Virus record (IMG/VR): IMGVR_UViG_3300027896_000010
Coordinates: 1-64,000 of that record
DNA from: a virus
Direction: 5' to 3' (one strand)
DNA: 64,000 nucleotides
Part shown: positions 413 to 39,417 of the stretch, piece after piece
How positions within the stretch are numbered: position 1 is the stretch's first letter
Layout of the letters: each line of letters begins with the position of its first letter
The notes under the pieces: generated by a model
What the model saw: only the letters and a program-made list of their open reading frames with translations
The model's database searches: none
What the model was told of the DNA's origin: nothing
Position numbers and translations under genes: made by a program

Positions 413-2746
413 TTATCCTAGGTTGCTTATGTTTGCTATAACCTGCGGGACAGTTATCAGTGGTGTACCTGTGGTCTGCATAAATCCTAGCCCCATGATT
501 AGCCCTGCGGTGGTCGAGGTGAGCGAACCCACAGTACCACTAGGTATTGTTCCTGATGCAACACCAAATCCTGTTGCTGTTGGTGCTTTATTAGATGGAA
601 CTATGCTCCAGTAAATTGCGCCTGTTCCTGCACCAATGGCTGTCCAACTTACCTGAACGGTCATTAACATATTATCTGCAACTGCCGTACTAGTGCCTAT
701 GGACTGAGTTACCAACGCTGTATCCGTTATGGCACCACCAACCCCAAGGTAAATCCTTATGTTGAACGCAGCTGTACCTGCGGCGTTCTTGGTCATGCCC
801 ACCTGCCATGTATATGTTGTGCCAACCCTAATGCCAGAGCCGGGAGTCATAGCCGCAGGGACTTTCAGGTTCGACCCCGCGATGTAATAGTACGTTCCCG
901 CCACCACGGTCTGTGACTGCAAAGTTGTGCTGTTACCATCGTTGCGTGGGGAGCTTGCTATCGGTGTTGTCGCGTCCCCATAACCTGCTGTAAAGGTCGT
1001 TTTGATTCCAACGCAACCGGGAGCGATAACGGGATTCAGGTTTGCGTATGCCGTCCCACTTATGTTACATATCTGCGTCATAACGCGAGAGCCTTGAACG
1101 AGGCACCACGTCCCGTACAGTGCCAGAACCCCGCCCGACTGTTGTATGAAACCTGTGCTTGTGGTGGAGGATATTATGTCACTCTGCATGGCTCCACCAT
1201 AGATAGCCAACGCGCCCGCACTCATAGTTATATAAGTATCAGTCCCTCCCCCCGCATTCTCGAATCGACAACCGAGCATGGTCACTCTCGCGGTCTGGTG
1301 GGAAATGTTCACCCCCGTCACCGAGTTGTCATCGAAGGCTACCATAGACAACTGAATCTCTCCGGCAGTTACACAAGCCATTCCAGTCGCACAGTTTCCT
1401 ATAAGACCACCAATTATCATAATGTTTTCGTTCGTCGGGTTTATCCCTGTGGTGCAATACTGAATCTTGCAGTTTATTAACATCTGAGCGTAAGCATAAC
1501 CGCCCGTTTTCCAATCCATCCCCTTACCGAACAGGTCAACCGAAACGTTCTTACAATATGAACCTGCAATTCCTACCACTGGACCGTCACAACCCCAATA
1601 AATACCTATGGTTGCGTTCGACGCTGATGTTCCTAACAATGAGAAGTCTTCAAGCGTTATCCCTCCGTGATTGCCGCTGCCACCTCCAACCGAGATAGCC
1701 GTCCCTGTTGACGCGCTGTAATAAAGCCTTGTCCCTGCGTTGCCGTCACCAGAGCCACGCAAGATAACACTGAAACCTACAGTTGCCATAACAATGGGTG
1801 TACTGAAAGAATAATTCCCCGGAGCTACCTCAATGACGCCGCCATAGTTCGCCGTGTAAGTTGCCACTAAATATGCATAAGCAGAATTTACCCATGCCCC
1901 GAAGTCAGCTCCCGCCCAACCCTGACTGTTGGCTGTGTCTATGTAGACCCTACCCTCGAAGTCTTTTGGTTTCCACGAAGCGGTGTTCATAAGAGTCATA
2001 AGGTTGGCTTGAGTCATGTCCGAAGGAGCGGCGGCACCACCAGAGATGTTTCCCTTGACGGTGTTATTCGCCATGTTCGCCATCTTCGCGTTCGTTACGG
2101 TACTAGCACCGATAGCTGTAGTTCCTGAACCAGCAGTTGCGGCTACATCTCCAGTTAAAGCTGAACGCTGTATGCCACCACCGCCAGTAAATTCCAGCCC
2201 ACCACCAATACTTATAACTTCTGGCGCACCAGAACCAGCGGAGTCTCTTCCAAGAACTGAATCTGTTGCCATGTTTGCCATTTTAGCCAACGTAACTGCA
2301 CTGTTGGCTATTGTAGTTGCTACTGAGTTACCTGTACCAACTCCTGTAACATCTCCAGTAAGTGTTATGTTAACTGAACTTAGTATCACTCCAGCATTGC
2401 TGTAAACAGTAACTACACCATCAGCGTACAAAGCAGTTCCATTAGCGGGGATAGTAATAGTTCCAGTTAACTGATTAGCAGCAAGTAATCCTTTGGCAAA
2501 TATCTTAATTCCAGTAATATCGCCAGCCGTAGCGTTAGCCAAAAAGACTGCCTTAATAAACGTAGGGCCATTAGCTGTAGCTGTGTAAATTGTAGCCGCA
2601 GCAGCCGCCAACTGTCCTTGCGCCAAAACCTTGTAAGTTTCTGCACTTGTAGCACTGTTTAATTCCAAACCAAAAATACTGTATGTTACAGACGTTGCTG
2701 CACTTGCTACCCCAGCTAATGTTTGACTTGCTTCTAACGTTATCAT
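413..2746 (-). CDS. tail fibre/tailspike-like virion protein with probable beta-helix domain
   Basis: 777 aa, Gly/Ala/Thr rich; repeated LTGDV(T/A)G and VT(L/N)AKMANMA fibre-type segments, central pectin-lyase-like beta-helix pattern. Confidence 0.6.
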   Translation of the reverse strand: MITLEASQTLAGVASAATSVTYSIFGLELNSATSAETYKVLAQGQLAAAAATIYTATANGPTFIKAVFLANATAGDITGIKIFAKGLLAANQLTGTITIPANGTALYADGVVTVYSNAGVILSSVNITLTGDVTGVGTGNSVATTIANSAVTLAKMANMATDSVLGRDSAGSGAPEVISIGGGLEFTGGGGIQRSALTGDVAATAGSGTTAIGASTVTNAKMANMANNTVKGNISGGAAAPSDMTQANLMTLMNTASWKPKDFEGRVYIDTANSQGWAGADFGAWVNSAYAYLVATYTANYGGVIEVAPGNYSFSTPIVMATVGFSVILRGSGDGNAGTRLYYSASTGTAISVGGGSGNHGGITLEDFSLLGTSASNATIGIYWGCDGPVVGIAGSYCKNVSVDLFGKGMDWKTGGYAYAQMLINCKIQYCTTGINPTNENIMIIGGLIGNCATGMACVTAGEIQLSMVAFDDNSVTGVNISHQTARVTMLGCRFENAGGGTDTYITMSAGALAIYGGAMQSDIISSTTSTGFIQQSGGVLALYGTWCLVQGSRVMTQICNISGTAYANLNPVIAPGCVGIKTTFTAGYGDATTPIASSPRNDGNSTTLQSQTVVAGTYYYIAGSNLKVPAAMTPGSGIRVGTTYTWQVGMTKNAAGTAAFNIRIYLGVGGAITDTALVTQSIGTSTAVADNMLMTVQVSWTAIGAGTGAIYWSIVPSNKAPTATGFGVASGTIPSGTVGSLTSTTAGLIMGLGFMQTTGTPLITVPQVIANISNLG

Positions 2747-2761
2747 TTTACTTATTCCCTC

Positions 2762-3106
2762 CTAAGCCATAAAAAACACGTAAGGCTTGCCAGCCCCACT
2801 AGACGAAACGGTATCCCACATCGGGTTGGCGGCATGACCCTGACTCTTTAAATATTGACCAGACGTACCGTGGACAAGCCTGTCCCATGTAGTACCACCA
2901 TAGTAAAGAACGTCTCCTTGCTCTGGAGTCGCAGGAAGAGCTATGTACTGACTATTCACATGCTCAGACCATGCACCAGACACCTTAACATAAAGCTTCA
3001 AAGTATCTGTCTCGAAAAAAACAGCACCGTCTGGTATAGTAGTCGTGGGTTTGGTGTCTCCAGAAGTTCCAGTTATTCTATTCCCAGCGTAATATACTAA
3101 TGCCAT
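2762..3106 (-). CDS. putative virion structural (tail fibre-associated) protein
   Basis: KPTTTIPDGAVFFETDTLKLY and GQYLKSQG..NPMW motifs typical of tail fibre segments. Confidence 0.5.
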   Translation of the reverse strand: MALVYYAGNRITGTSGDTKPTTTIPDGAVFFETDTLKLYVKVSGAWSEHVNSQYIALPATPEQGDVLYYGGTTWDRLVHGTSGQYLKSQGHAANPMWDTVSSSGAGKPYVFFMA

Positions 3107-3120
3107 TTATCCACCTCTGC

Positions 3121-3414
3121 TTAAACTAGCCAACTGAAAATTATGAATTCTACACCAGACTCGTTCATGTACTTCAAAGCTACCGTTCTGCTCGGCGTAA
3201 CTCCAGATGCAGTGATGTAAAGCGAACCAAAATCTGTCGTTACTGTCCCGGGAGCCGTAGCCGCTTTAAACAACTCTCTTCCTAAAGAATCTACCGAATG
3301 AACTAATGTATCGCTTGAATCTTGTATACTATGTTTATAAACACCTAGGGCATCTCCAACCTTCTCATATATGTTCTTGCCACTAACTATCCTGATGCCA
3401 GCAATTGTAGTCAT
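3121..3414 (-). CDS. putative virion protein; stand-alone paralog of the C-terminal domain of 3424-4545
   Basis: aligns by eye with the last ~95 aa of the adjacent gene (GIRIVSGKNIYEK / GVRIISAKHIYEK; KAATAP). Confidence 0.6.
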   Translation of the reverse strand: MTTIAGIRIVSGKNIYEKVGDALGVYKHSIQDSSDTLVHSVDSLGRELFKAATAPGTVTTDFGSLYITASGVTPSRTVALKYMNESGVEFIIFSWLV

Positions 3415-3423
3415 TGCTTTCTC

Positions 3424-4545
3424 CTATACAAACTGACTTGCTATGATTACAGTTATCCCAGCTTCATTTACGAACTTAATTCCAACTTCTTTAGTAGGTG
3501 TAGCTCCAGTCGAATACTCATACAACACACCTGTATCAGCACTCGGAGTACTTGGTGCCGTAGCGGCTTTCATTAGTTGCTTTCCAGTGTTATCAACAGA
3601 GTAAACTTCTGCGTCACTTGAATTTTGTACAACCCACTTTGTTGTACCTGTGGCACCAAGCTTTTCGTATATATGTTTCGCACTTATTATTCTTACTCCC
3701 TGAAGTGTGGATGCTGACGCATAGGCGTAACTGTCACCACCCCATATGTCAGCCCCCGTAAATGTACCAAGCAAAGCTCCACCATCAGTCTGATATACCT
3801 TGACCTTGCCGTTGAAAGGAAACTCCAAGGTAGGTACAGCTACAACTACACTTGCCCCGGCAGAAGTAGCGTCTGCCTTTACTACGTCAGCGGCATCCGT
3901 AACGTCAACATGATAAAGGTTGGACAGTCCCGTTACCGTTATATTCGCTCCACCTGTAAAACCCTGCAAATAGTCATACTTCAAATGACCAGTTCCTGAC
4001 AATGTACCAAACATCAACCATGCCGAATTAGTAAAAGCATAACCTGTTTTAGAAGCAGTACCAATGAGAGCCATTGTTGATGAGTTGTAATAAGTAAATA
4101 CCAACACCTTGCTGGTGTCCTGAAACTCTTGTTCATAAATGTAGTATGTTGCTACTGTTGGTTGCAGGTTATTATAGATGAATGAACCAGCATAAATACC
4201 CCAATGGTATGGGTGTTGAACACCAGCAAGCCAAGTCCCCTTGCCCTGCATATAGTCAGCAGGAGCAGTAGGTTGCGTGGCTTTATCTTCAATATGACCC
4301 CCAAGTTGCACATATTCATCTCCACCAGTGTGTACTACTTGGGCCTTACTTCGTAGAGTAAGTTTCCCGCCACCAGTGGGCAGAGTAAGTGGACTGGCCG
4401 TAACTACGCCTATAGCCAACCCATCAGTTATCATTTCGCCGCCAGAGAAAGAAGGTGAATTTATCTTAGTGAAGAATGCCGATATGTCTCCACTTACAAA
4501 ATCCTCATGGAATACTTTGCCTGTTGATGTTAGTGTTACTGGCAT
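3424..4545 (-). CDS. putative virion structural protein, lectin-like beta-sandwich plus accessory domains
   Basis: 373 aa, beta-rich, Thr/Gly rich; shares IWGGD module with 32608-34500. Confidence 0.55.
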   Translation of the reverse strand: MPVTLTSTGKVFHEDFVSGDISAFFTKINSPSFSGGEMITDGLAIGVVTASPLTLPTGGGKLTLRSKAQVVHTGGDEYVQLGGHIEDKATQPTAPADYMQGKGTWLAGVQHPYHWGIYAGSFIYNNLQPTVATYYIYEQEFQDTSKVLVFTYYNSSTMALIGTASKTGYAFTNSAWLMFGTLSGTGHLKYDYLQGFTGGANITVTGLSNLYHVDVTDAADVVKADATSAGASVVVAVPTLEFPFNGKVKVYQTDGGALLGTFTGADIWGGDSYAYASASTLQGVRIISAKHIYEKLGATGTTKWVVQNSSDAEVYSVDNTGKQLMKAATAPSTPSADTGVLYEYSTGATPTKEVGIKFVNEAGITVIIASQFV

Positions 4546-4560
4546 TTATGTCTCCTGTAC

Positions 4561-5202
4561 TTATACCCAATACATTTCAATTGTGTAACCAGTATCTAAA
4601 GTAACTCTTGTGGTTGTAGTTGCTGAGGCGTCATCCCACTTGAGTACCTTCGTAGTATCAATACTAATATCATCAGTAAACTTCTTTGCTCCACCAACTG
4701 TTTGGGCAGTTGTCTTATCGACCAGCCCTGCCGTGTCGGGAGTACCTGCAGATATTACGCTTGTGTCAGAAGCATAAAGAACATATCCAGAAGTTATCGC
4801 ATCTGGGAAGGTCAAAGTGCTCGCCGCAAAGTTCGTGCCATCTGACCTCAGTAATTTGCCAATAGTAGCACTTGCATTAGGATACGTAGGAGTCGAATAA
4901 ATTATGTTAGTACCATCTGCTATCAAAACCTGACCAGCAGTTCCAGAAGCACTTGGATAAGTTGGGGTAGACTCGCCGTAAGACGTTCCGTTACCAATCA
5001 GTACCTTGCCAGAGGAAGCTGTAGTCGCATACAAGCCAAGTCTGGTCTTAACGTCAGTCGAACCCCCCTTGGGAGTTGTGCCAAGCTCTGTCTCAATAGC
5101 AGTTATCTCGGCTTGCATATCATTGACATGAGCCGCAAAGACAGTATCGACATGGTCAGTCTTTGTTGTGAATGATTTTATTCCAGCAGGATACGTTGTC
5201 AT
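4561..5202 (-). CDS. putative tail fibre/baseplate-associated protein
   Basis: N-terminal FTTKTD..AAHVNDMQAEITAIETELG head-binding-type motif; repeated TPTYP and G(K/Q)VLI segments. Confidence 0.55.
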   Translation of the reverse strand: MTTYPAGIKSFTTKTDHVDTVFAAHVNDMQAEITAIETELGTTPKGGSTDVKTRLGLYATTASSGKVLIGNGTSYGESTPTYPSASGTAGQVLIADGTNIIYSTPTYPNASATIGKLLRSDGTNFAASTLTFPDAITSGYVLYASDTSVISAGTPDTAGLVDKTTAQTVGGAKKFTDDISIDTTKVLKWDDASATTTTRVTLDTGYTIEMYWV

Positions 5203-5675: not shown

Positions 5676-8600
5676 TTATACCGTGTATCTACCCTCCTGT
5701 GTATCCATGTACCGCTGGTCTAGCTGATACGGCGCTCTGTAAGGCCCCTTGCCGGGGTCAGCAGGTTTCATCTGCTTCTTCCTCAGCATCTCTATCATCT
5801 CATAAGTCCTGATATCTTCCTTGCTGATATTGGGCTTTACCTTGCTTGAATCTTCTTCGATAGGATAGTTAGGTTCTGGCTGGTATGATTGCCATGAAAG
5901 AGGCTGTATGTGCTGAGCCTGTCCCATCAATTCATCCAGTTGCTCGAATATAGGGCCTGTCGCTTCATTGTATTGTTCCATAGACCAATGCTCCGCATCA
6001 GACTTCTGATTGATAAGCTTTAGCTGATTGAACAACTCTTGCTGGGCGTCTGAAATCTTCTGCTCCATATCAAAATGCTCGTGTATCTTTTGTTGCTCTT
6101 CTGGCGAAGGAGTCACCCCATATTCTGCTATAGCTCTCTGGCTAGTCGCCTTTCGATATCTATGCTCAGTCCAGTCTACCAACTGCTCGACTTCAGGCTT
6201 ACTGATGTGCATCTCTTCTGCAATCTCATCGAATGATTTCATGCGTTGCAGAAGACTTAGCATCTGCTCCTGTTGCTCCTGAGCCTCTTCGTCTGTCTCG
6301 AAATATGCTATCTGTCTTTGACTAGCCAAAGTATCCTCCCTGCTTGCCGCTTTCTCTCTGTTACGGAGCATCTCCCATGCTTTTGGATAACTATCCGCAC
6401 CAAGGTCAAAACCAAGACCACCAACATCTATGACTTCATCTACAAAGCGCCAAGGAATAATCCCCTTGGCATAGCCATCGAATTCAAAGAAATCCCAGCC
6501 CTTGCTTCTTTCCTGTTCTACTATCTCTTCATCAGTCAAAGCTTCGTTTGTTTCAGCATCAAAATTAAGTGGATTCATGCGTTTGATATCAAGCCGTTTC
6601 TGGACTTCCTTCTGCACAGGCTCATGTTCGTAAGTATGTCCTCCCGGCTGGTCATAGTCTTCCATATAATCGTGCAACCACTTCTTAGGCATTTCCAGTT
6701 TTAACACTACTGGGTGTCCCTCTGCTGGTGGTATCTCGCCCCTGTATCCTTTGTTGTGCCAAAGTTCTTCGTGTGAGTCTTCGCCCTCTTGCTCCAGTAA
6801 CCAAGCTCTGACCCTGTAACGAATTAGACCCCCTACTTCACCACCACCCTGAGCATAAGCGGATGCCTTAGCAAAATCAGAAGTGAGATAGATTTTCCAG
6901 TCAAGCACCTGTCCCACGCCTTGTAAATATTTGCTTCGATATTCTATATCATTCTTATAAATATCCGCTGGGACATCGGCTCTAGTCAGCCCAAATTCCT
7001 TAAGCACATCATCAATCTGCTTATCTATCGGGACTGCCCTGATACCCTTGCTCTTCATGTCAGGAATAAAACTCGACCATGTGCCATGGTACATAGTGAT
7101 GGTGGCTTCCTTCTCTGGAGGAGCCTTCCAGTATTCAACTGCCAATGCTCGTTGACCCCAAAGCTGGCCCATCCCCGGCAGTTGACCCCCAAGGGGCTTC
7201 TCGTCCTTAATCAAATCCCACAGGGCGTTAGCCGCCTCATCTTTGGTGGCACAGGCTTTAGGCTCGCCTAACAATTTCCTGTCCCAAGGCAAACCCTCAA
7301 GCTCATTACAAATCCAGCCATCTTGAGTCTCTGTGAACTTGCCAATCATATAGTTACCACCTATCAGAACTTGGTCTGACTTGCTAGCGAACTTCTCGAA
7401 GATGGCGTTCTCAAGCATAGGATATACGCCCTTCTGACCAGATACCAATTGCCCAAGACTATCAGCCATCATCTCACTGAAAGACTTCTGTGTCAGATGC
7501 CCATTTTCTATCTGCTCCCGCAATGACTTATCGAGGTAATACACATATCCATGCCCCCGATAATACTTACCTTTGTCATACGGACGAAGATGTTTCTTGA
7601 CAGTCTCTTCGTAGTCTTCATAAGACTGCAAATTCCTGTCAGCATTCATAGTCCTTAACTGCCACGCAAAGTTCTCAGCCTCTTTGCTGTTATGCTCAAA
7701 TGCATGCCAGCACTCATGCCCCATTATGCTTAGCAGTTCTGGCACTGACAGGTCTCTTACGTTATCAGACAAGTAATAATTGTTGATATACATGATGTTC
7801 TTGGATGGGCTATACCAAGCCGCTCTCTGCAAGGTCTTGCCACCCTGCCGAAATGGAACATTCTTAATAGCTGTATATATCTGGTTAGGCAACCGCTTCA
7901 GAACTTCTTCCTTCAGTCGCTTCAGCTTGTCTCTGCGATAAGCACTCTCTTGTTTCTTCCACTCATGCACCTTTAAATTATACGCATCTCTCTGGTCGGA
8001 GATGGTTGGATAGTCACGCGTATTCTTCTCAAAATCCTGCAACCGTGGTGGCTGTGGTCTGCCCCCTATAAACTCAGGAGCAAGCTCTTCAACCGTACGA
8101 TATTCTTGCATCGGTTCTGGTGGAACTTCTGCTATCACTCTACGAAACTCTGCCCATTCCCCACTGGGTAGCTGAATCTCATGAAGGAACATCTCGTCCC
8201 ATCTCTTCTTCATAGTCCTTAGCGCATCTTTGCCTTCAGAGGTCAATTCGAAATCATCTTTATCTTTGATATCAAACCATCCAGACATATACCCGCGCTT
8301 TAGCGATTCCATCTTGCTGGGATTAATGCCCTGCTTCTTCATAAGATTCTCGATAGCATCAGGGTCGAAATCCATATCCATCATATTCTGCCATGTGACC
8401 CCGAAGAATGTTTGTAGATTATCTGCCCAAGTACTAAGCGTGGCATCATAGAACCACATTCCCTTATCTTTATTGTTCTCCCAATTCTCAATGTGTGTAT
8501 CGGGCTTATCTTGCAGAGAATATTCCAGTATCCCTATCTCGCCTTCAGGTATCTGCCCAAGCGCCTTAACATCTATATGGACGAGAACCGGATTGATAAC

Positions 8601-10961
8601 ACCCCCGACTTCTTCTCTAGCCTTAAGCCAGTTCTTGAATACCTGCGCGGCTCCCCACTCATCGTAAGATTGATGTCCTTCCCCCTCTGGCAATGGATAC
8701 TCATACCAACACTTGACGTACACTCCATCGTCTAGGGTGACCACATCATTCGAAGAACACGGTTCTACCGAATCTCTGGCCTCACCCTCATCTATGAATG
8801 GCCCTTTCCAGTTTTCTTCTTTGTCCTTGTCTCGCTTTATCGCATAACCATGCTCCCAAGCATCTGCATCCCATTCTTTAGAATTAAAAAATTCATCTAT
8901 ATAAGGCTTGGGCGCACCTACGCCTTCTTTGGCATACCGAATCAAGTCTTGAATGCCTATCTCGTTAGCAAAAAACCGTCTGGCTATTACCAGCGTGTCG
9001 TATATCTGGACTGCATCTTCGTAGTTGTTGGTGAATGATATCAAGTCGCCCTCTCCACCGCCCAGCCCCAATCCTTTTTCTAAGCCAATTTCGTTACGAG
9101 TCTTGAGTCCCTCCTCAAGCACCTTGCTCTTATTGGTTGTCACATGATAGAGAATCCTGCCAGCCAGCTTCCTATGAGCTTGTATTCGAGCCACCATCTT
9201 GACATCATTCCAATCGATACGGTTCGTCCTGCTGTAGAGCCAATCGACTATCTGTTGAAGCTCTTCGTACCTTGGGTCATGTGGAGTCTCCCCAATACCC
9301 GCTTCGTTAGCGGCATCACCAAGCAGATGTTCCAGCATCGGTAGGTCGATGTGCATGGAACTCACAATGTTATCAATATAGATAATCACCCAACTTAGGT
9401 TCTCTTCCTTGAGATACTGGTTCAAGAACGCAAGGTATTCTTCATACTGTGGCAGGGCTTGTTCTGCCCTCTTGGCTCTACGAGCCTCTTCTGCGTTCTC
9501 GCTATCTTTTCTCCACGATACGGAATCTTCCAGCCAACCTATGAATTCACCATACCACTTGCTCAGGTTCCTAGCCAAGTCATAGACGAATACGGTATCG
9601 CCCACATGCCTGTCCAGCCAGTCTGGGTCGAGATGTCCAGCATCCTGCATCTCATAGAATTTCTTGAGACTCTTGATGACACCTTCGGCTGATGCTATCT
9701 TGGCTACTTCTTCTCTCACCCAATTGTAGCGATTAGTCCTTGAATACAACCAGTTGATTATGGGAGCCAATTCATCAAGCAACTCATCTGAGTCTGGCAT
9801 ATCGGGGTCTTGCCACCCAGAAGGATAGACTGCATCCATTAGGAGATGGTCAAACATCGGAATGTCCACATGCATAGAATTTGCAATATTATCAATTGCT
9901 ATGACCATCCAGTTTACTTGGCTACGCCGATAGGCATTCCTTAACAACTCCAAATACTCTTTGTATTTTGAAATGCTATTTATAGCATCGTAAGCAACTC
10001 GTTTATCTTCCTTGATTCCAGCCCACTCTGGGTGTTGAGCCTTTTCCAATACATCTACTCGAAGTCTGCAAGCCGCTATCAATTTCTTGATAAATATCTC
10101 ATACCAATCAGCTAAGCTCTTTGCGAAGTCATAAATAAAAACCGTATCACTTACATGATTATCAAGCCAATCAGAGTCAAGATGCCCATCATCAAGCATC
10201 TCATAGAACTTCTTGAATGAATGTATGATGCCAGCCACAGACGATGCTATCTTCCTCTGGCTCAGAACTGCCCCTGAGAGGCTCTGAGAGCCTTCAGGAC
10301 GCCCGATACCCCCTGAGTACGAGTCAATCCACCTAGAAGCCACCATCCGCTCTGGAGTCCACACTGGCTCCCCATTCCCAGAGCGTTCTTTTATGAAATC
10401 CAACATCTGCCAAAGCTCTTTGGTAGTCGTACAGGATATGTAATCGTGGCGGTTGTAATATTCCCCCAGTTCCTTAGACATCCTTTGGTATACATCGTGC
10501 CAGACATGAACCATGTTCAGGGCATTATCCAGAGCCACAACCGCATTGGAGATATCATTATCAAAGAGCTTGGGTGGGTTCAACAGGTCATTGATATACT
10601 TCTCATAGTCTGGCAGCAGCTTTGGCAGGTCAGGGTTCTTCCAACCCTTATTCCATGTAGTATGCTCAGTAACATCATGTACCACTTGCTGGGCGCAACT
10701 CAGCCAGTCACCGAAGTATCCTTCCTTGAACCAACGATTCAAATCTATCAGGGTCGAATCGAGAAGCTTCTCTGTACCGGGGTACACTTGGAGAAGCCCA
10801 CGCTCTTCCAAATCATAGACACGTTTTATCTTGCGTATCAGGTCAGGCAGAGATACTGCTTCCAAACTAAAACTAGCCAGTTCTCGCTGGCTAGCTTGGG
10901 GGTAAGGCATCTTAACCTTTATAAGAGGTGGCGGCTTCTTCTTCCGCTTACGTTTCTTCAA
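5676..10961 (-). CDS. 1761-aa multidomain polyprotein: three related helical domains, two ART-like domains, HExxH zincin peptidase, separated by QRxIA linkers
   Basis: YHVTT..GL..ISFT and YHGT..GI..IYLTSDFAKASAYA..VVLKL ART-fold motifs; GHECWH..SEMMAD; repeated SQR(E/K/Q/A)(L/I)A motifs. Confidence 0.75.
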   Translation of the reverse strand: MKKRKRKKKPPPLIKVKMPYPQASQRELASFSLEAVSLPDLIRKIKRVYDLEERGLLQVYPGTEKLLDSTLIDLNRWFKEGYFGDWLSCAQQVVHDVTEHTTWNKGWKNPDLPKLLPDYEKYINDLLNPPKLFDNDISNAVVALDNALNMVHVWHDVYQRMSKELGEYYNRHDYISCTTTKELWQMLDFIKERSGNGEPVWTPERMVASRWIDSYSGGIGRPEGSQSLSGAVLSQRKIASSVAGIIHSFKKFYEMLDDGHLDSDWLDNHVSDTVFIYDFAKSLADWYEIFIKKLIAACRLRVDVLEKAQHPEWAGIKEDKRVAYDAINSISKYKEYLELLRNAYRRSQVNWMVIAIDNIANSMHVDIPMFDHLLMDAVYPSGWQDPDMPDSDELLDELAPIINWLYSRTNRYNWVREEVAKIASAEGVIKSLKKFYEMQDAGHLDPDWLDRHVGDTVFVYDLARNLSKWYGEFIGWLEDSVSWRKDSENAEEARRAKRAEQALPQYEEYLAFLNQYLKEENLSWVIIYIDNIVSSMHIDLPMLEHLLGDAANEAGIGETPHDPRYEELQQIVDWLYSRTNRIDWNDVKMVARIQAHRKLAGRILYHVTTNKSKVLEEGLKTRNEIGLEKGLGLGGGEGDLISFTNNYEDAVQIYDTLVIARRFFANEIGIQDLIRYAKEGVGAPKPYIDEFFNSKEWDADAWEHGYAIKRDKDKEENWKGPFIDEGEARDSVEPCSSNDVVTLDDGVYVKCWYEYPLPEGEGHQSYDEWGAAQVFKNWLKAREEVGGVINPVLVHIDVKALGQIPEGEIGILEYSLQDKPDTHIENWENNKDKGMWFYDATLSTWADNLQTFFGVTWQNMMDMDFDPDAIENLMKKQGINPSKMESLKRGYMSGWFDIKDKDDFELTSEGKDALRTMKKRWDEMFLHEIQLPSGEWAEFRRVIAEVPPEPMQEYRTVEELAPEFIGGRPQPPRLQDFEKNTRDYPTISDQRDAYNLKVHEWKKQESAYRRDKLKRLKEEVLKRLPNQIYTAIKNVPFRQGGKTLQRAAWYSPSKNIMYINNYYLSDNVRDLSVPELLSIMGHECWHAFEHNSKEAENFAWQLRTMNADRNLQSYEDYEETVKKHLRPYDKGKYYRGHGYVYYLDKSLREQIENGHLTQKSFSEMMADSLGQLVSGQKGVYPMLENAIFEKFASKSDQVLIGGNYMIGKFTETQDGWICNELEGLPWDRKLLGEPKACATKDEAANALWDLIKDEKPLGGQLPGMGQLWGQRALAVEYWKAPPEKEATITMYHGTWSSFIPDMKSKGIRAVPIDKQIDDVLKEFGLTRADVPADIYKNDIEYRSKYLQGVGQVLDWKIYLTSDFAKASAYAQGGGEVGGLIRYRVRAWLLEQEGEDSHEELWHNKGYRGEIPPAEGHPVVLKLEMPKKWLHDYMEDYDQPGGHTYEHEPVQKEVQKRLDIKRMNPLNFDAETNEALTDEEIVEQERSKGWDFFEFDGYAKGIIPWRFVDEVIDVGGLGFDLGADSYPKAWEMLRNREKAASREDTLASQRQIAYFETDEEAQEQQEQMLSLLQRMKSFDEIAEEMHISKPEVEQLVDWTEHRYRKATSQRAIAEYGVTPSPEEQQKIHEHFDMEQKISDAQQELFNQLKLINQKSDAEHWSMEQYNEATGPIFEQLDELMGQAQHIQPLSWQSYQPEPNYPIEEDSSKVKPNISKEDIRTYEMIEMLRKKQMKPADPGKGPYRAPYQLDQRYMDTQEGRYTV

Positions 10962-11329
10962 ATCCCTAACACCTTTTTTATCTTGTCATGCAAACTGTAA
11001 ATCGCCTTCTTCAACCTCATAGAGTCCATTCTTTGACCCCATGCATTATTCCTAATCTCCCAATCACTTATATCGCCCAATTGCTCAAGCCTGTCCAGCA
11101 AATCCTCATTGACCAGACGATACTTGGATAGCGTCAAGACTCCATTTGCCACGATAGGCAGACAGTCTTTATAATCCTCTGGGATATCCATTCCATTATC
11201 TTCCCAACCCTCTTCAGGAACATTGATGAAATATTCATACATAGCAGGTAATGCCCACTCCAACACTACCTCTTCACTGGGAGTTATCCTAGGTATGACT
11301 TTGCGCTCTGCTATCTTGCGCTGGTTCAT
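10958..11329 (-). CDS. acidic hypothetical protein with MNQRKIA leader
   Basis: starts MNQRKIAE; overlaps flanking genes by 4 nt. Confidence 0.7.
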   Translation of the reverse strand: MNQRKIAERKVIPRITPSEEVVLEWALPAMYEYFINVPEEGWEDNGMDIPEDYKDCLPIVANGVLTLSKYRLVNEDLLDRLEQLGDISDWEIRNNAWGQRMDSMRLKKAIYSLHDKIKKVLGI

Positions 11330-11625
11330 CCTTCTTCCTTTAGCATCTTCTTCCCCTTCTGTTCCATCTCGTCCAGAAGCGTATAGTAATTGGGAAGCTC
11401 ATTCAGATGAGCCAGAGCTATCTTAGCGGTCAGCACAGGGTCGTCATTGGTGATATTGGTGCCGGAGTTAACCCTGCCATGCTCTAGCTCGACATTGATG
11501 CCCATATAGAACTCGTTGGCATCGTACTCGTCGGTCAAGCCCATGCCCTCCAGAACATCTGAGGCTTCTTCTTCGGAGAAGTCTTCCTTAGGCTCTTTAT
11601 CTTCTGCTATCTTGCGCTGATTCAT
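11326..11625 (-). CDS. DUF5661-like protein with MNQRKIA leader
   Basis: GINVELEHG..KIALAHLNELPNYYTLL motif; start moved to the ATG at 11625 (MNQRKIAE). Confidence 0.7.
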   Translation of the reverse strand: MNQRKIAEDKEPKEDFSEEEASDVLEGMGLTDEYDANEFYMGINVELEHGRVNSGTNITNDDPVLTAKIALAHLNELPNYYTLLDEMEQKGKKMLKEEG

Positions 11626-12079
11626 CTTTATACACTCCCACATCATGATAGCGCCAATCCCGTTCTGCCGCCCCACACTTAATATGAACAATATCTATCT
11701 CGACTTCATTTTGGCTAGCCAATGCTTCAACCTCTTTAAACAAATCAAACTCTTCATCAGGCGTTAATTGGTCAAATGGGTTTAATGTCGCAGTCAATGT
11801 CCTTAAGAGATAGCCAGCATCATGCGAAGAATCTATAACCCCCGGCATAATCAACCCTGTATTTTTCAAATCGATATAGAGCGCGTTCTGTTGTTCAGTT
11901 GTCACAGAACTACGATTTCGGCCCTTGGAATTATTCACACACACAAACTCTACCTGAATAAATTGCTCAGGACATTTCTCCCAACCACTATCAGACTCAA
12001 CTGCATATTTATCATCAATATATTGAAGTAAATCAGGAGCAATATGTTTTGTGTATCTCGCTATCCTGCGCTGGTTCAT
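11597..12079 (-). CDS. hypothetical protein with MNQRRIA leader
   Basis: starts MNQRRIAR. Confidence 0.65.
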   Translation of the reverse strand: MNQRRIARYTKHIAPDLLQYIDDKYAVESDSGWEKCPEQFIQVEFVCVNNSKGRNRSSVTTEQQNALYIDLKNTGLIMPGVIDSSHDAGYLLRTLTATLNPFDQLTPDEEFDLFKEVEALASQNEVEIDIVHIKCGAAERDWRYHDVGVYKDESAQDSRR

Positions 12080-12737: not shown

Positions 12738-13467
12738 CGAACATCAAGGGGTTCCAAGTGACGCCCCATTTCTCCTCAAATCGTTTCTTGTTAGCCGACC
12801 ATAACTTCCAGCGGGTTTGTACCTTAAGCTTCTCAAGAGTTTTACTCTCATAATGATAAACAAAGCCCCTGTACGTAATCAGGGGTGGGTGTTCTGCTTG
12901 TATTAGTTTCATAATGTAATCATTGTCTTCAAACCAGTATGGGGCATACCCCTCGTCGAAGCCCCCTAGCTCTTCATAGCATTTTCTGGAAATAACAAAA
13001 CAACAACCGAACAACCTGCCAGAAACAACCATATCGTTGGTCATCATCGCCTGTCGCTCTTCCACAAACTGATACCAACTCTTGTCTGGGTCGAACAGAT
13101 GCTTGCCCACGAACATAACTGGGCTAACCGCCCAAGCACCCTCGTGCTCCATCGCAGAGATTACGCCTTCCAAACAATCCTTCGACATCAATACATCATT
13201 GTTGGTGATGCATATGTAATCGGCAGTGGTCTTGGCTAATGCCTTATTGATTGAAAGCAGATAGCCTATGTTCTCCTCGTTACGTTCCACCACAAACCTA
13301 TCATCAGCCTCAGCGTTCTTAGTCAGGAATTCCCATGTCTTATCTTTCGAGCAATCATCTATAATGAAATATCTATGCTCTATCTTCGTATATCTCTCGG
13401 CACAATCAATGAACTGTTCCGTATAAGGCAACTGCCCATAGACCGCCATGCATATATCGATGTTCAC
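12730..13467 (-). CDS. family 2 glycosyltransferase
   Basis: IIDDCSKD, ENIGY, NNDVL, GGFDEGY..WFEDNDY motifs. Confidence 0.88.
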   Translation of the reverse strand: MNIDICMAVYGQLPYTEQFIDCAERYTKIEHRYFIIDDCSKDKTWEFLTKNAEADDRFVVERNEENIGYLLSINKALAKTTADYICITNNDVLMSKDCLEGVISAMEHEGAWAVSPVMFVGKHLFDPDKSWYQFVEERQAMMTNDMVVSGRLFGCCFVISRKCYEELGGFDEGYAPYWFEDNDYIMKLIQAEHPPLITYRGFVYHYESKTLEKLKVQTRWKLWSANKKRFEEKWGVTWNPLMFGG

Positions 13468-13476
13468 TAGATGTCC

Positions 13477-13725
13477 TTATTCAATAATAGGAGTTTCCAC
13501 GTTCGTCACAGCCGTCAACCAAGTATCGTCATCGGCTTTATTCTTATACTGTATCACAGCAAACCTGAGAAAATGCTCTATGAACCCCTTGGATTTACCG
13601 CCGGGGAACGTTAGCGTCTTCGTGGCAACCTTAGTGCCATCCTGAATGATATCAAAAGTGACTTTGGCTCCAGTTATCTCGTTGGTATAACTGGTAATAG
13701 TATACCCCCATAAAGTAGCCATCAT
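13477..13725 (-). CDS. hypothetical protein
   Basis: 82-aa ORF with SD. Confidence 0.55.
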   Translation of the reverse strand: MMATLWGYTITSYTNEITGAKVTFDIIQDGTKVATKTLTFPGGKSKGFIEHFLRFAVIQYKNKADDDTWLTAVTNVETPIIE

Positions 13726-13731
13726 CTCTCC

Positions 13732-14370
13732 TTATAGTAACGAGAAATCAACCGAATCCATATTCGGAATCGTAACAAACTTCTTGTAATAATATATGCG
13801 AGGATTAGTCGCGTCCTCTCTCCATGAGAATATAAACTGATACTGATTCCATGAAGGCACCAATAGCTCATTGGGAACCAAGGCTATCTCCCAATAACCA
13901 GTGCTAGTATCAACATACGCTATCCTCGGATGCGCCATGACCTCTTGCCCTGTAACGGTATGCACCGTAGTCGCTGACCATATCTTCACCTGTAATGTAG
14001 GATTATAGGTTATTTCCTGAGTGATGTCTCGTATGAACCCATATACAACGCAAACACTAGCGGCTGGCAATGCTGGGTGTGTGAATGGTATACCATGCCC
14101 GACAAACACCTGCCCAGTATCAGTAGATATAAATGCCTCTTCAAGGTCGAAATAATAGTCATCGGCATTTCTTACCAAGACATATTCATTCTTGGAGGGA
14201 ACTATAAGTTCTGTATAACCCTCGACATTTGTATAGCCTGAATCCATCAGGTTACTGAAGTCAGTATCATTCCGATAAAATATCTGTACCTCTACATCTT
14301 CCAATGCATTAGGCGTACTACCAGTATCAAAACAATATGCCTTAACCGTAACTTCTTTTTGGATACTCAC
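13732..14370 (-). CDS. putative virion protein with two Ig/prealbumin-like beta-sandwich domains
   Basis: T..EGY.EL.V and VD.STGYWEIAL patterns typical of carboxypeptidase-regulatory-like folds. Confidence 0.5.
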   Translation of the reverse strand: MSIQKEVTVKAYCFDTGSTPNALEDVEVQIFYRNDTDFSNLMDSGYTNVEGYTELIVPSKNEYVLVRNADDYYFDLEEAFISTDTGQVFVGHGIPFTHPALPAASVCVVYGFIRDITQEITYNPTLQVKIWSATTVHTVTGQEVMAHPRIAYVDTSTGYWEIALVPNELLVPSWNQYQFIFSWREDATNPRIYYYKKFVTIPNMDSVDFSLL

Positions 14371-14942: not shown

Positions 14943-15239
14943 TTAATAATCTCCTTCAGCTATCATCCTTTGAGTTATCTTCTTCCCCTCGATAGCTTTA
15001 ACATAATACAAGCCAAACGAGCTTGTTGAGTGATACCAAGCCTCTGCCTCATAGCCTATCTGGACATCTTGGGGAACCCCAGCCGCCCAAGCTTCGCCCT
15101 TGCGAGTTTGGAATCTGCCTTGAGTTACTCCCGGCCCCTCCCACACATATTCATGTTTTTCGATATCAACAAGCGTCACAATACCCATGAACCGATTGTC
15201 ATAAGCTGAGCGCCTTAGCCCTTCTTCATGCTCTCGCAC
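14943..15239 (-). CDS. hypothetical protein with C-terminal TQRMIAE motif
   Basis: 98-aa ORF. Confidence 0.5.
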   Translation of the reverse strand: MREHEEGLRRSAYDNRFMGIVTLVDIEKHEYVWEGPGVTQGRFQTRKGEAWAAGVPQDVQIGYEAEAWYHSTSSFGLYYVKAIEGKKITQRMIAEGDY

Positions 15240-22701: not shown

Positions 22702-22974
22702 TTATTCTCCTTGACTTAAGTCGCTCTGAACGTTCTCGCATATCTCCTGACACAAATCCCACAGGGCATCTTCTACTGACGCTGTGCGACACTCCAATGG
22801 TATAACCTGAACAGTCGCCTCGAACACATCGTATACGAAATCATCGAGCGACCCCATGTCTTCATACAAAGTCAGAGCATAGTTCTCGGTATCGCTAGCG
22901 AGGCGTTCGATATCAATCGCGTCTTCGTCTATCTTGAACTGCGCTACGAGTCTTTGAGATGGCTTGAGTTGCAT
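22702..22974 (-). CDS. acidic protein with SQRLVA (motif B) N-terminus
   Basis: MQLKPSQRLVAQ. Confidence 0.65.
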   Translation of the reverse strand: MQLKPSQRLVAQFKIDEDAIDIERLASDTENYALTLYEDMGSLDDFVYDVFEATVQVIPLECRTASVEDALWDLCQEICENVQSDLSQGE

Positions 22975-28537: not shown

Positions 28538-29422
28538 CTATTTCCCCCTCTTCAGCCAACTGAACCAGCCCTTCTTTACCTTGCCCTTACGGCAATAGTT
28601 GCTCGTCCTCAGTTTGAATTGCTTATAGATTGCACAGTTCTTGCATATGCAATGCGAAGGTGTCGGTGTCGGCGTAGGTGTTGGAGTCGGTGTAGGTGTA
28701 GGTGTGGGTGTCGGAGTTGGCGTAGGTGTAGGTGTAGGAGTAGGAGTAGGAACTGGAATCGGCACTGGCTGCACAGCAGCCCATGCTTCTCCCGGCGATT
28801 CGATACCATTTAACAGCTTCTGGAAATCAGAGATGAGGATTTTGAACTTGCCCTGCAAGCCCCAAGTCGTTCCCCATGAATTAACAGCGTCCAGATACAT
28901 ACTATCCTCACCGTTCTGGAACCAGCAGTGACCCCCCTGAACCGAACCAGTCGGCTTGATAACGCCATTCACTGGGTCAAACATATCGCTAGTCCACTCG
29001 GTTCCCACGAGAACAGATCCATGTTTTTGAAGCCAGTCCACGATTTCTGTCATGGTATTCAGCTTGGCGTAGCCACTTATCCAGCCCTTGTCTTTTGCTA
29101 CCTTCAATCCGTCTCTCACATAAGCCCCATCTTCGGCTCCCGGCTCTCCCTCCAGTATTTTGATATCAAGATAAAAGCCATGGCACTGTTCCCCGGAGAG
29201 ATGCGGGTCGATGTGATTCTCATCATCACAATTCAGCATACCTCCAGTGCCATATGCCACACACTCATTCGTGCTTCCTTGGTCAAGGATTTCGGTATCC
29301 GACCAGATAACTGGGACGGCTATCCCCTCGTCTATCATCGATTCTAATTGCTTGACGGTATAGTCCCTTGGGTCATCGACAAGGGGCTTTCTGCCTAGAC
29401 CGAACTGCTTATCCCCACTCAT
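28538..29422 (-). CDS. papain-like (C1) cysteine peptidase with Pro-Thr linker
   Basis: DQGSTNEC, GGHC, NSWG.TWG. Confidence 0.85.
   Translation of the reverse strand: MSGDKQFGLGRKPLVDDPRDYTVKQLESMIDEGIAVPVIWSDTEILDQGSTNECVAYGTGGMLNCDDENHIDPHLSGEQCHGFYLDIKILEGEPGAEDGAYVRDGLKVAKDKGWISGYAKLNTMTEIVDWLQKHGSVLVGTEWTSDMFDPVNGVIKPTGSVQGGHCWFQNGEDSMYLDAVNSWGTTWGLQGKFKILISDFQKLLNGIESPGEAWAAVQPVPIPVPTPTPTPTPTPTPTPTPTPTPTPTPTPTPTPSHCICKNCAIYKQFKLRTSNYCRKGKVKKGWFSWLKRGK
28665..28772. repeat. (Pro-Thr)n coding tandem repeat
   Basis: degenerate 6-nt repeat GG(T/A/C)GT(A/C/T/G) encoding roughly 18 PT units. Confidence 0.9.
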
Positions 29423-29973
29423 TTTTTTACTCCTTTAAATCCCTTATAACCCATCTCAACTTCACCCTTGTCTTCATCCTTGTCTCCACCCTCATCTGCT
29501 TTAGCCCATTCTCTTTCCTGCTCTGGCCCTTGCCCCGGCCCTTGACTAGTAAGCATCTTTATAGTTACCAGACGTCTCCTTAATATCTGCAAACGAGCCT
29601 TAACATGGGCATCGGGGTTAGATGTCATAGTCGTATAAACATCAATAACCCTTATCAGGTCACTAGCCATATCATCATTAAGCATCAACGGCCTATGATT
29701 GCCTAGTTCATATTCCTCGAATGCTTCTTCCTCTGCGCCTTCTGGGGGTTTCTCTTCGGCGAACTCGTCTTTGACCTTATGCAATGAACGCCGACCCTCA
29801 TAAGGGAACCGTCTCTCTATCTCATCGATGTCACCAAAATAAGTACTCACCCCAAGAGCCTCTTCTAGAGCCGACCTGACCTTAAGTCTGAGGGCTTCGC
29901 GGTCTTCATCATCAACGTCACGCACTTCCATGTTGCTCTCCTGTTCTATGCCTTCGATTTTACGCTGGTTCAT
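29419..29973 (-). CDS. acidic protein with MNQRKIE leader and a leader-A-like segment
   Basis: ATGA-coupled start at 29973; DDEDREALRLKVRSALEEALG. Confidence 0.65.
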   Translation of the reverse strand: MNQRKIEGIEQESNMEVRDVDDEDREALRLKVRSALEEALGVSTYFGDIDEIERRFPYEGRRSLHKVKDEFAEEKPPEGAEEEAFEEYELGNHRPLMLNDDMASDLIRVIDVYTTMTSNPDAHVKARLQILRRRLVTIKMLTSQGPGQGPEQEREWAKADEGGDKDEDKGEVEMGYKGFKGVKK

Positions 29974-30089
29974 GCCCACTCACATATCCAATCCATGGGC
30001 AAGAACCTCTTGAATGAACATTCCCAAGAGGCGTCACAATCCTCACAGCCCATATCTAATATGCAAAGAAAGCTACAAAATTCATTCAT
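29970..30089 (-). CDS. 39-aa Cys-rich peptide (below ORF-track cutoff)
   Basis: MNEFCSFLCILDMGCEDCDASWECSFKRFLPMDWICEWA; overlaps both neighbours. Confidence 0.4.
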   Translation of the reverse strand: MNEFCSFLCILDMGCEDCDASWECSFKRFLPMDWICEWA

Positions 30090-31161: not shown

Positions 31162-31605
31162 CTACGGTTTCTCTACTGTTCGCTCAACATCAGATAGCCA
31201 GTCAAGTATTGGCCTCATACCTTCGCCATCAATGCTCCAAGCAGGTTCGCCACCATGCAGATTCAAACCCCCCTGCCCTAATCTATTAGAATCTTCAAGC
31301 AATGTCTCAATATAATAGGCAGAGACAAACTGGCTTGTATCCAGTGAATAGAACTCCGCAATCGGCATCGTCAGGAACTTCTTGTGGCTCTCACTTTCTT
31401 TGTCTACTATTCCTGTGTCATTAGTGTAGACGATGTTGACGAGCCACTTACCCACACACCCATCGTCATTAGGGGTTTCAAAGACCTTGGAAATACCCGT
31501 CTCGGTAAAATAGTCACCAGCGCGAGGGTCTTCGCTACGCATATTAATCCCCAACACCTCTCTCAGTACCTTTGATATTATTTCTTCAAGCCTATCTTCG
31601 TCCAT
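31162..31605 (-). CDS. leader-A protein
   Basis: MDEDRLEEIISKVLREVLG with AAGGGAG SD. Confidence 0.72.
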   Translation of the reverse strand: MDEDRLEEIISKVLREVLGINMRSEDPRAGDYFTETGISKVFETPNDDGCVGKWLVNIVYTNDTGIVDKESESHKKFLTMPIAEFYSLDTSQFVSAYYIETLLEDSNRLGQGGLNLHGGEPAWSIDGEGMRPILDWLSDVERTVEKP

Positions 31606-31858
31606 GGCTATCTCCCTTTTTCTTGCGCCTCTTTCTGGTCTTGGGGTTCTCTTCATCTAGCTTGACTTTGCCATTCTGCCCTAATGGACTTGGAATCAAA
31701 TTGAATAGCAATCCTATGATTACTGGCATCAGATATTTATCAACTTTCTCAAAGCCCTGAATAGCTCCTATCGTCAACAGGAATATAGCAATTAACCCCA
31801 AGATTATTGGGGTTAAAGCATAAGGATTTTTCTTGAGTTGTAGTATGAATCTTTCCAT
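31592..31858 (-). CDS. small two-TM membrane protein (holin-like)
   Basis: two hydrophobic helices and a basic C-terminal tail; start reassigned to MERFIL. Confidence 0.5.
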   Translation of the reverse strand: MERFILQLKKNPYALTPIILGLIAIFLLTIGAIQGFEKVDKYLMPVIIGLLFNLIPSPLGQNGKVKLDEENPKTRKRRKKKGDSHGRR

Positions 31859-39195: not shown

Positions 39196-39417
39196 TTAAG
39201 TTCCATCCTGCGCTTGCACTTCTGCTATCATTCTCTGCACTTCTTCGATAAGGGCTATGACGTTCTGGTAAGCCCCCTCCAAGATAGTCCTCAAATCTCT
39301 ATCGAGTCTCCTGTCTGGCTCCCCGGGTTCATTCTGGGGATGTAGTATCTCGTATGCTATAGTGTCTAGCTCGGTAATAATCGTTTGGAGAAAAATTACA
39401 TACTGGTCATTTAGCAT
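39196..39417 (-). CDS. small helical hypothetical protein
   Basis: 73-aa ORF with SD. Confidence 0.5.
   Translation of the reverse strand: MLNDQYVIFLQTIITELDTIAYEILHPQNEPGEPDRRLDRDLRTILEGAYQNVIALIEEVQRMIAEVQAQDGT

Follow-up and report, generated by a model that had tools for sequence, protein, structure and literature searches.

What does an uncultured phage make from a single minus-strand frame of 1761 codons, and how would such a chain be used? The frame lies at positions 5676-10961 of the window, i.e. the whole 64,000 nucleotides analysed here, which are the first 64 kb of a linear phage record of 193,437 bp in IMG/VR (IMGVR_UViG_3300027896_000010). Its product, called the polyprotein below, reads as a protein of the polyvalent kind, as judged from its architecture and from the company that its modules keep in other phages. 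Our favoured reading, held with moderate confidence, is that of a phage-type polyvalent protein which would be cut at short joints by the prohead protease, loaded into the head and injected into the host.

The original prediction, made by a model from the letters of the DNA, described the product as a 1761-aa effector polyprotein with two ADP-ribosyltransferase (ART)-like domains and a zincin peptidase. The frame itself was borne out as one open minus-strand frame, running from a TTG that overlaps the stop codon of the upstream gene to a stop at 5676-5678. The true start is probably the ATG at 10910 (codon 18), which is the likelier one because AAAGG precedes it and because the first joint then lies 7 residues from the Met. 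Counted from this ATG, the polyprotein has 1744 aa, a mass of 203 kDa and an isoelectric point of 5.0; residue numbers below are counted from the TTG.

The chain is divided by a recurring short peptide. Matches to [QHR]R.[IL]A stand at aa 25, 235, 596, 940, 1270, 1548 and 1608, and a variant, AKIASAE, lies near aa 418. In 20,000 shuffles of the polyprotein, the same pattern was found 0.10 times on average and at most three times, compared with the seven copies observed, which upholds the QRxIA delimiters that had been proposed between the segments. A DNA repeat at the joints was ruled out: the codons differ from site to site and the joint is therefore a peptide signal. The modules that it delimits are as follows.

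10260-10910, minus strand: helical domain copy 1, aa 18-234; the first joint, SQRELA, follows 7 residues after the probable Met.
9711-10259, minus strand: joint SQRKIA and helical domain copy 2, aa 235-417.
9177-9710, minus strand: joint (A)KIASAE and helical domain copy 3, aa 418-595; P0003, a relative, has one such copy, at 65% identity.
8145-9176, minus strand: joint HRKLA and ART-like 1, aa 596-939, the module with LYHVTT, GLKTRxE, GLGGG and ISFT.
7380-8144, minus strand: joint RRVIAE and the zincin-like unit, aa 940-1194; HECWH at nt 7704-7718 and a conserved Glu in SEMMAD.
7155-7379, minus strand: small domain of ~75 aa, aa 1195-1269, also found as two short proteins, P0005 and P0014; at its end stands the joint context QLWGQR.
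6321-7154, minus strand: joint QRALA and ART-like 2, aa 1270-1547, with an invariant YHGT and a likeness to the NAD lobe of Tpt1/KptA.
6141-6320, minus strand: joint SQRQIA and a helix-turn-helix-like unit of 60 aa, aa 1548-1607.
5679-6140, minus strand: joint SQRAIAE, a helical piece and the C-terminal tail, aa 1608-1761; 47% identical to the C-terminal 158 aa of P0003.

An ART fold, an HExxH unit, a helix-turn-helix-like unit and orphan helical repeats are thus combined in a single chain. The landmarks on which the domain order had been read by eye lie where they were placed, with YHVTT at aa 605 (nt ~9149), HECWH at aa 1082-1086, then SEMMAD, and YHGT at aa 1291 (nt ~7091). The three helical domains, which make up one third of the chain, are indeed related: copies 2 and 3 share 46% identity (E 2e-48), and copy 1 is a distant relative with 22% identity to copy 3 (E 2e-5). 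A shorter homologue of this helical family was searched for and none was found. At the other end, the last ~75 aa of the C-terminal tail are the best conserved by eye, and any anchoring element would be this tail, as a candidate.

Homologues were searched for exhaustively with aa 688-1761 and by a word search with aa 590-945. Several short proteins each match one joint-delimited module: ART-like 1 in P0004 and P0015, the zincin module in P0007 and P0009, the ~75-aa domain behind it in P0005 and P0014, and ART-like 2 in P0006, P0008 and P0010-P0013. The sole close relative found, P0003 (999 aa), is 66-70% identical over the aligned parts and has eight copies of the joint. One helical domain, the zincin unit with the small domain, the helix-turn-helix unit and the C-terminal tail are retained in it. 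Neither ART-like module is present, and a different HExxH module stands precisely at the position of ART-like 2. Because the joints are the edges of stand-alone units, and because of these module differences in P0003, the chain reads as a string of cassettes swapped at the joints. A megablast search with the gene against the phage collection gave no match, a related-locus search in IMG/VR with the whole polyprotein found none, and no paralogue of any of its modules occurs elsewhere in the phage genome.

Both ART-like modules recur in other phages beside or fused to portal, MuF or classical ART domains, in agreement with their proposed nature as parts of polyvalent proteins. Relatives of ART-like 1 were found in L003, where a 1254-aa protein also has Phage_Mu_F and an intein and lies downstream of a ParB_N and ART-PolyVal protein; in L002, where a 1623-aa protein ends in ADPrib_exo_Tox and has as neighbours a topoisomerase IB, MuF and a Portal_Mu-2H-ART fusion; and in L005, where a 575-aa protein has an acetyltransferase-like part by eye and no Pfam hit. 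In P0016, the ART-like 1 module occurs together with an HExxH unit and a YYHGT module. ART-like 2 follows an R-S-E-type ART (motifs by eye, no Pfam hit) in a 331-kb phage record (L007). Each lineage of ART-like 1 carriers has its own repeated joint peptide. In L003 (9599-13363), where the protein with MuF and cargo modules is split by the intein (Intein_splicing, E 6e-6), the joints read GDxPGHxFRGNQW. In the 60-kb phage record L002 (8288-13159, with neighbours at 6908-8143 and 13156-14220), they are a ~30-residue RGPRGG..W.NxxTG peptide, which Pfam scores as ribosome modulation factor (RMF, E ~2e-7) and which also heads the topoisomerase IB protein.

The joint also occurs outside the polyprotein. 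Three small genes directly upstream carry it at the N-terminus of their products.

10958-11329, minus strand: gene for a 123-aa protein starting MNQRKIAE.
11326-11625, minus strand: gene for a 99-aa DUF5661 protein starting MNQRKIAE.
11597-12079, minus strand: gene for a 160-aa protein starting MNQRRIA.

Over 274 non-nested minus-strand open reading frames of the genome, the core RK[ITLV]A was counted 15 times, compared with 3.8±1.8 in shuffles. Two copies are in the polyprotein, two in two of the small upstream proteins, one in the leader of the capsid protein, one in the head protease, seven in two 'SRKTA' polyproteins beside the portal, one in the 1713-aa protein adjoining these and one in a small protein that bears the other leader of this phage. 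The head genes concerned were identified with PHROGs, Pfam being uninformative on the head region.

Genome 170661-171680: major head protein (E 6.5e-75, match from residue 25).
Genome 176622-177608: head maturation protease (E 3.8e-20), of the Bxz1-like type phrog_18299.
Genome 178645-180990: portal (E 1.8e-110).

The capsid protein, which is 41% identical to capsid proteins of cluster C mycobacteriophages and of Gordonia phages, has the N-terminus MARERKTA, and the head protease has FRKLA at residue 36. To our knowledge, the capsid protein is a protease substrate that all tailed phages process. In Mycobacterium phage ScottMcG, a homologous protease is fused to a scaffold in a gene annotated as 'tape measure'. 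The N-terminus of the product, gp94 (L014:4279-8388), matches the present head protease with its YLYxxVRAIS motif, and gp94 looks like a protease-scaffold fusion.

Since the capsid protein, the protease and the polyprotein joints share one signal, cutting at this signal by the prohead protease is the simplest reading, and it would place the polyprotein inside the procapsid. A precursor of ~200 kDa with eight independently mobile modules, each introduced by S/x-Q-R-x-[I/L]-A, would be expressed late and packed into the procapsid. There, the phage's own head maturation protease would cut at the joints. The cut would probably fall directly behind the Ala, since the following residue varies freely (E, S, G, W, Q, N, M, D, Y and V were all found there). 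Pieces of ~7-40 kDa would be carried in the head and reach the host along with the DNA; once inside, the ART-fold domain or domains may use NAD+ to modify a protein or nucleic acid of the host, while the remaining modules may have other targets. The three small upstream proteins would each be cargo of one module bearing this signal, much as T4 Alt and the internal proteins bear N-terminal propeptides of 7-10 residues. The cleavable payload of the original prediction fits the joint core common to the capsid leader and the head protease; its packaging and cleavage are predicted.

The same motif could also be read as a helix-capping linker or a docking tag, in which case the chain would stay uncut, as one large multidomain protein, or be no virion protein. 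In the model of ART-like 2, the motif starts the first helix (residues 3-9), and a distant homologue of this module has a similar 'RRLAAKW' there. In the capsid protein and the small proteins, a cut would remove only ~7 residues; two further small proteins have QRMIAE near the C-terminus; and the virion RNA polymerase of phage N4 is packaged unprocessed. However, T4 Alt sheds exactly such a 7-residue propeptide, and a free residue after the Ala is what is expected of a P1' position. Moreover, the motif is in none of the other ~265 open reading frames, where ~3.4 were expected by estimate, and the module swaps between relatives fall exactly at the joints. We consider an uncut chain unlikely. 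The two proteins with QRMIAE (window 14943-15239 and 39196-39417, both minus strand) have it within 9-13 residues of the C-terminus and would shed a short C-terminal peptide if the motif is a cut site.

If the joints are cut, the cutter might instead sit within the chain. The unit at aa 940-1194 has the HECWH mentioned above and, ~95 residues later, the Glu of SEMMAD; the segment ahead of HExxH reads by eye as a helix, three short strands and a helix. The alignment with P0007 and P0009 shows that both the HExxH and the Glu of S-x-x-E-[IM]-M-A-D are conserved there; P0003 shares HECWH and has SEMMAD letter for letter. This is the layout of the metallopeptidases of polyvalent proteins, an HExxH with a Glu in a later helix (Iyer et al. 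2017, PMC5512222), as the original prediction of an HExxH peptidase followed by SEMMAD implied. In Pfam, the unit gave a sub-threshold match to Peptidase_M13 (E 0.0056; 16.8 bits against a cut-off of 24.5) and its homologue P0007 a weak SprT-like match (E 0.001); a profile of the unit gave no match to PDB sequences. Motifs and sub-threshold Pfam matches thus suggest a zincin metallopeptidase-like unit. Processing by this unit, in cis or after injection, would make the joints its own sites. Iyer et al., who cite P1 DdrB, argue that metallopeptidases of this kind process their own chains (PMC5512222), and P0003 has two HExxH units. Against this, the R-K-[T/I/L]-A core is also on the capsid leader, on the head protease and on two polyproteins that have no HExxH, and the three zincin-less single-module proteins carry the motif N-terminally. 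As the SRKTA polyproteins beside the portal lack an HExxH, a protease acting in trans fits better than an in-chain zincin. From the distribution of the motif, the prohead protease is thus the more likely cutter, and self-processing appears distinctly improbable.

Several observations weigh against a head-loaded, protease-cut polyvalent protein. Searches of the whole polyprotein against Pfam, PHROGs and PDB sequences gave nothing at threshold, and no Pfam or PHROG family exceeds its cut-off anywhere along it; ART-PolyVal (PF18760) and MPTase-PolyVal (PF18818) have no match in the genome at E<=10. The gene lies outside the head module of the genome (170-187 kb) and adjoins it only when the two ends of the linear record are connected. 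A conserved 44-bp 'late' motif, which precedes two head operons, is not in the window. The motif of the capsid protein stands 4-8 residues from the Met, where a cut would remove very little. In addition, ~26 proteins of this phage bear a different leader, of 19 aa, which is a further candidate for a cargo tag.

Whether the payload would include enzymes depends first on ART-like 2. An AlphaFold model of aa 1270-1547 (predicted local distance difference test score, pLDDT, 66.8; predicted template modelling score 0.62) was compared to known structures. Foldseek placed Tpt1 at the top (probability 0.91, E 0.14), ahead of DarT, TccC3, diphtheria toxin and pertussis toxin. A VIA structure search, which is independent of Foldseek, gave a Z of 8.8 to residues 91-180 of KptA (9ld3_A; root-mean-square deviation 3.0 over 84 aa), 7.0 to the Rhs toxin TreX and 6.8 to mouse Tpt1, with at least 45 ART-fold chains among the 50 best listed. 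At the level of the model, these matches establish the ART fold of ART-like 2, and the claim of an ART domain holds here as regards the fold.

The alignment of ART-like 2 comprises eight family members, including the module from L007. Its invariants are T-x-T-x-Y-H-G-T, an Arg, a Tyr and G-E, to which a PVVxxV[E/D]xP strand and a final IP..I strand are added; the strand-1 His, in YHGT, is kept in all eight members. The family profile weakly matches Tpt1/KptA at LYHGT (E 0.03). Tpt1/KptA (PDB 9ld3, 8tg4 and 7yw2) is the best structural match and shares, as read from the alignment, the order of LYHGT, GL, the second strand, a PVVL-type strand and the final IP..I. In contrast to Tpt1/KptA, aa 1270-1547 has no N-terminal RNA-binding lobe: only ~15 residues stand ahead of strand 1 and the structural match is limited to KptA residues 91-180. 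As only the NAD lobe is present, the module is not a Tpt1 orthologue. In Tpt1/KptA, it is the N-terminal RNA-binding lobe that carries the catalytic Arg-His-Arg-Arg tetrad.

Among predicted viral structures (BFVD), ART-like 2 best matched a Vibrio phage protein and seven Bacillus phage G proteins, all seven uncharacterised; a protein with a MuF domain came up at a probability of 0.96, and ART-PolyVal-like and LPD proteins ranked lower. The look-alikes in phage G (~seven) are Gp610, Gp251, Gp53, Gp233, Gp336, Gp568 and Gp141, which go unmentioned in a recent phage G paper.

For ART-like 1, the hints are concordant and each is weak. The family comprises 18 unique sequences from viral, genome and metagenome contigs, with the motifs L-Y-H-V-T-T, G-L-K-T-R-x-E, a Gly-rich loop, I-S-F-T, R-E-x-A-G-G-x-x-D-P and, in most, a C-terminal G-E-W-R. 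Tyr-His of LYHVTT is kept in all 18, and strand 2, ISFT, has a Ser in place of Tyr. The model is poor (pLDDT 52), Foldseek gave no match, the VIA search of the PDB and PDB profile searches gave nothing usable, and tblastn against the phage collection gave no match. The best VIA Z of 4.4 is within noise; 11 of the 50 rows listed are nevertheless ART-fold chains spanning the whole core (Z 3.1-4.3), among them PltA (4.3), pertussis S1 (3.9), KptA (3.8), a diphtheria-toxin homologue (3.7) and PARP16 (3.7). hhalign pairs LYHVTT...ISFT with the LYHGT...IYLT of ART-like 2 at a probability of only 4-13%, and a deeper alignment of the 18 sequences reached only 12.7% against ART-like 2. In a language-model (ESM) search, Arr-ms and PARP were the nearest named clusters (0.88-0.89); the ten best named hits fell in one clan, as they did for a third of shuffled proteins. 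On balance, we lean towards an ART fold for ART-like 1. Hence, of the two ART-like domains originally proposed, the fold of the second stood, and that of the first was not secured by the model, Foldseek or VIA.

In most relatives of ART-like 1 (loci L015-L029), LYHVTT is preceded by a conserved helical piece of ~45 residues (EW...A...G.IS.E.A..G) and 'LP'. The window copy and P0004 lack this piece.

It might be asked whether the two ART-like modules are enzymes. They could be degenerate ART folds or unrelated binding or structural domains, with the polyprotein serving mainly as mass inside the head or as scaffold. No confident fold was obtained for ART-like 1, and the Glu of GEWR is a Thr in the window copy and in P0004; this copy may be inactive or not an ART, or, if an ART, it may be atypical. 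In ART-like 2, the strand-2 aromatic is Tyr (KIYLT) in the window copy and varies among Y, F, H, W and A across the family, and no acid of the last strand is conserved among the eight members. A third of the chain is, moreover, an orphan helical repeat for which no shorter homologue was found. On the other side, the strand-1 His and several charged residues are invariant in both families (in ART-like 2, GGE is invariant and the E/D of the PVVxxVE strand is conserved in seven of eight members), and other phages have both families alongside bona fide effector domains. Modules that are no enzymes seem to us unlikely.

In their definition of polyvalent proteins, Iyer et al. (2017) described ART and zincin metallopeptidase domains as the commonest enzymatic or hub domains, modelled the ARTs on T4 Alt and proposed autoprocessing by the metallopeptidases (PMC5512222). 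Like such proteins, the present chain joins many unrelated domains at huge length, an ART fold and an HExxH unit among them, and its modules are also found singly and in proteins linked to MuF or a portal; for both, delivery together with the DNA is predicted. Unlike them, it has no MuF, portal or ArdC domain, and its modules are split by one short peptide, which the capsid leader and the head protease also have. Its ART-fold domain comes closest to the NAD lobe of Tpt1 and is not recognisably an ART-PolyVal of the HYD2 type. The MuF-toxin fusions of temperate phages and portal-effector fusions are likewise approached through the LYHVTT relatives, fused to MuF in L003 or beside the portal-2H-ART fusion in L002, whereas the polyprotein has neither a MuF nor a portal part.

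In T4, the head protease gp21 removes propeptides of 7 (Alt) to 65 (gp23) residues, and a 10-residue N-terminal capsid targeting sequence (CTS) both targets cargo and is cut (PMC9026906). Short N-terminal peptides (7-10 residues in T4) on unrelated cargo, an ART included, are common to the present phage and to the Alt/IPI-III system of T4, in which the head protease cleaves off the peptide and the phage ejects the cargo into its host. The original prediction had also drawn on T4 Alt for the ARTs themselves; neither module is of the Alt (R-S-E) type, both being His-type. Further differences are that the present protease is Bxz1-like and not of the gp21 family, and that the signal also joins eight modules within one chain. 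A literal T4-type head protease model was dropped, as the gp21 family (PF03420) is absent from the genome.

According to work on the giant phage SPN3US, head proteins, among them an abundant ejection protein, are cleaved by the protease gp245 at a short motif, some of them at several sites (PMC10052503). In this system and in the giant phage phiKZ with its protease gp175, the substrates are ejection and inner-body proteins; that head-internal proteins are cut at a short motif, in some cases at multiple sites, resembles the cutting predicted here. In contrast, the motif there is A-X-E, and the cuts mostly remove propeptides and do not release a series of different enzymes (PMC10052503). More tentatively, R-K-[T/I/L]-A, here S-Q-R-x-I-A, might be one maturation and loading code of a Bxz1-like lineage of large phages, read on the capsid protein, the protease and effector cassettes; the modules that it flanks, including two undescribed His-type ART-fold families, would then be recombinable, loaded, released and injected. 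We regard this generalisation as possible and somewhat doubtful.

Nearly all genes of the window are on the minus strand. Directly downstream of the polyprotein, the genes at 413-5202 (minus strand) are repeat-rich and tail-fibre-like. A 777-aa protein among them has a DUF5907 repeat, and a C-terminal module of ~95 residues is common to 3121-3414 and the end of 3424-4545 (minus strand). A scan for promoters and terminators gave results at chance level. Near-copies of the joint start two more small proteins, MNQRKIEG and MQLKPSQRLVA, at 29419-29979 and 22702-22974 (minus strand), respectively. In the protein at 31162-31656 (minus strand), ARKREIA stands directly ahead of the 19-residue leader (MDEDRLEEIISKV...), so both signals can stand in tandem.

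Polyvalent proteins are thought to be a main phage route for delivering anti-defence and takeover enzymes. The joint model offers a testable alternative to the published proposal of self-cutting by zincins: a joint of five to six residues stands at each boundary between modules and on several single-module proteins, and, if true, a prohead-protease code would replace autoprocessing by metallopeptidases for this class of polyvalent proteins. If confirmed, the joint would provide a portable tag for loading foreign proteins into phage heads and a rule for finding cargo genes in uncultured large phages, and at least one, possibly two, new ART-fold families would be added, one of them with ~seven structural look-alikes in Bacillus phage G.

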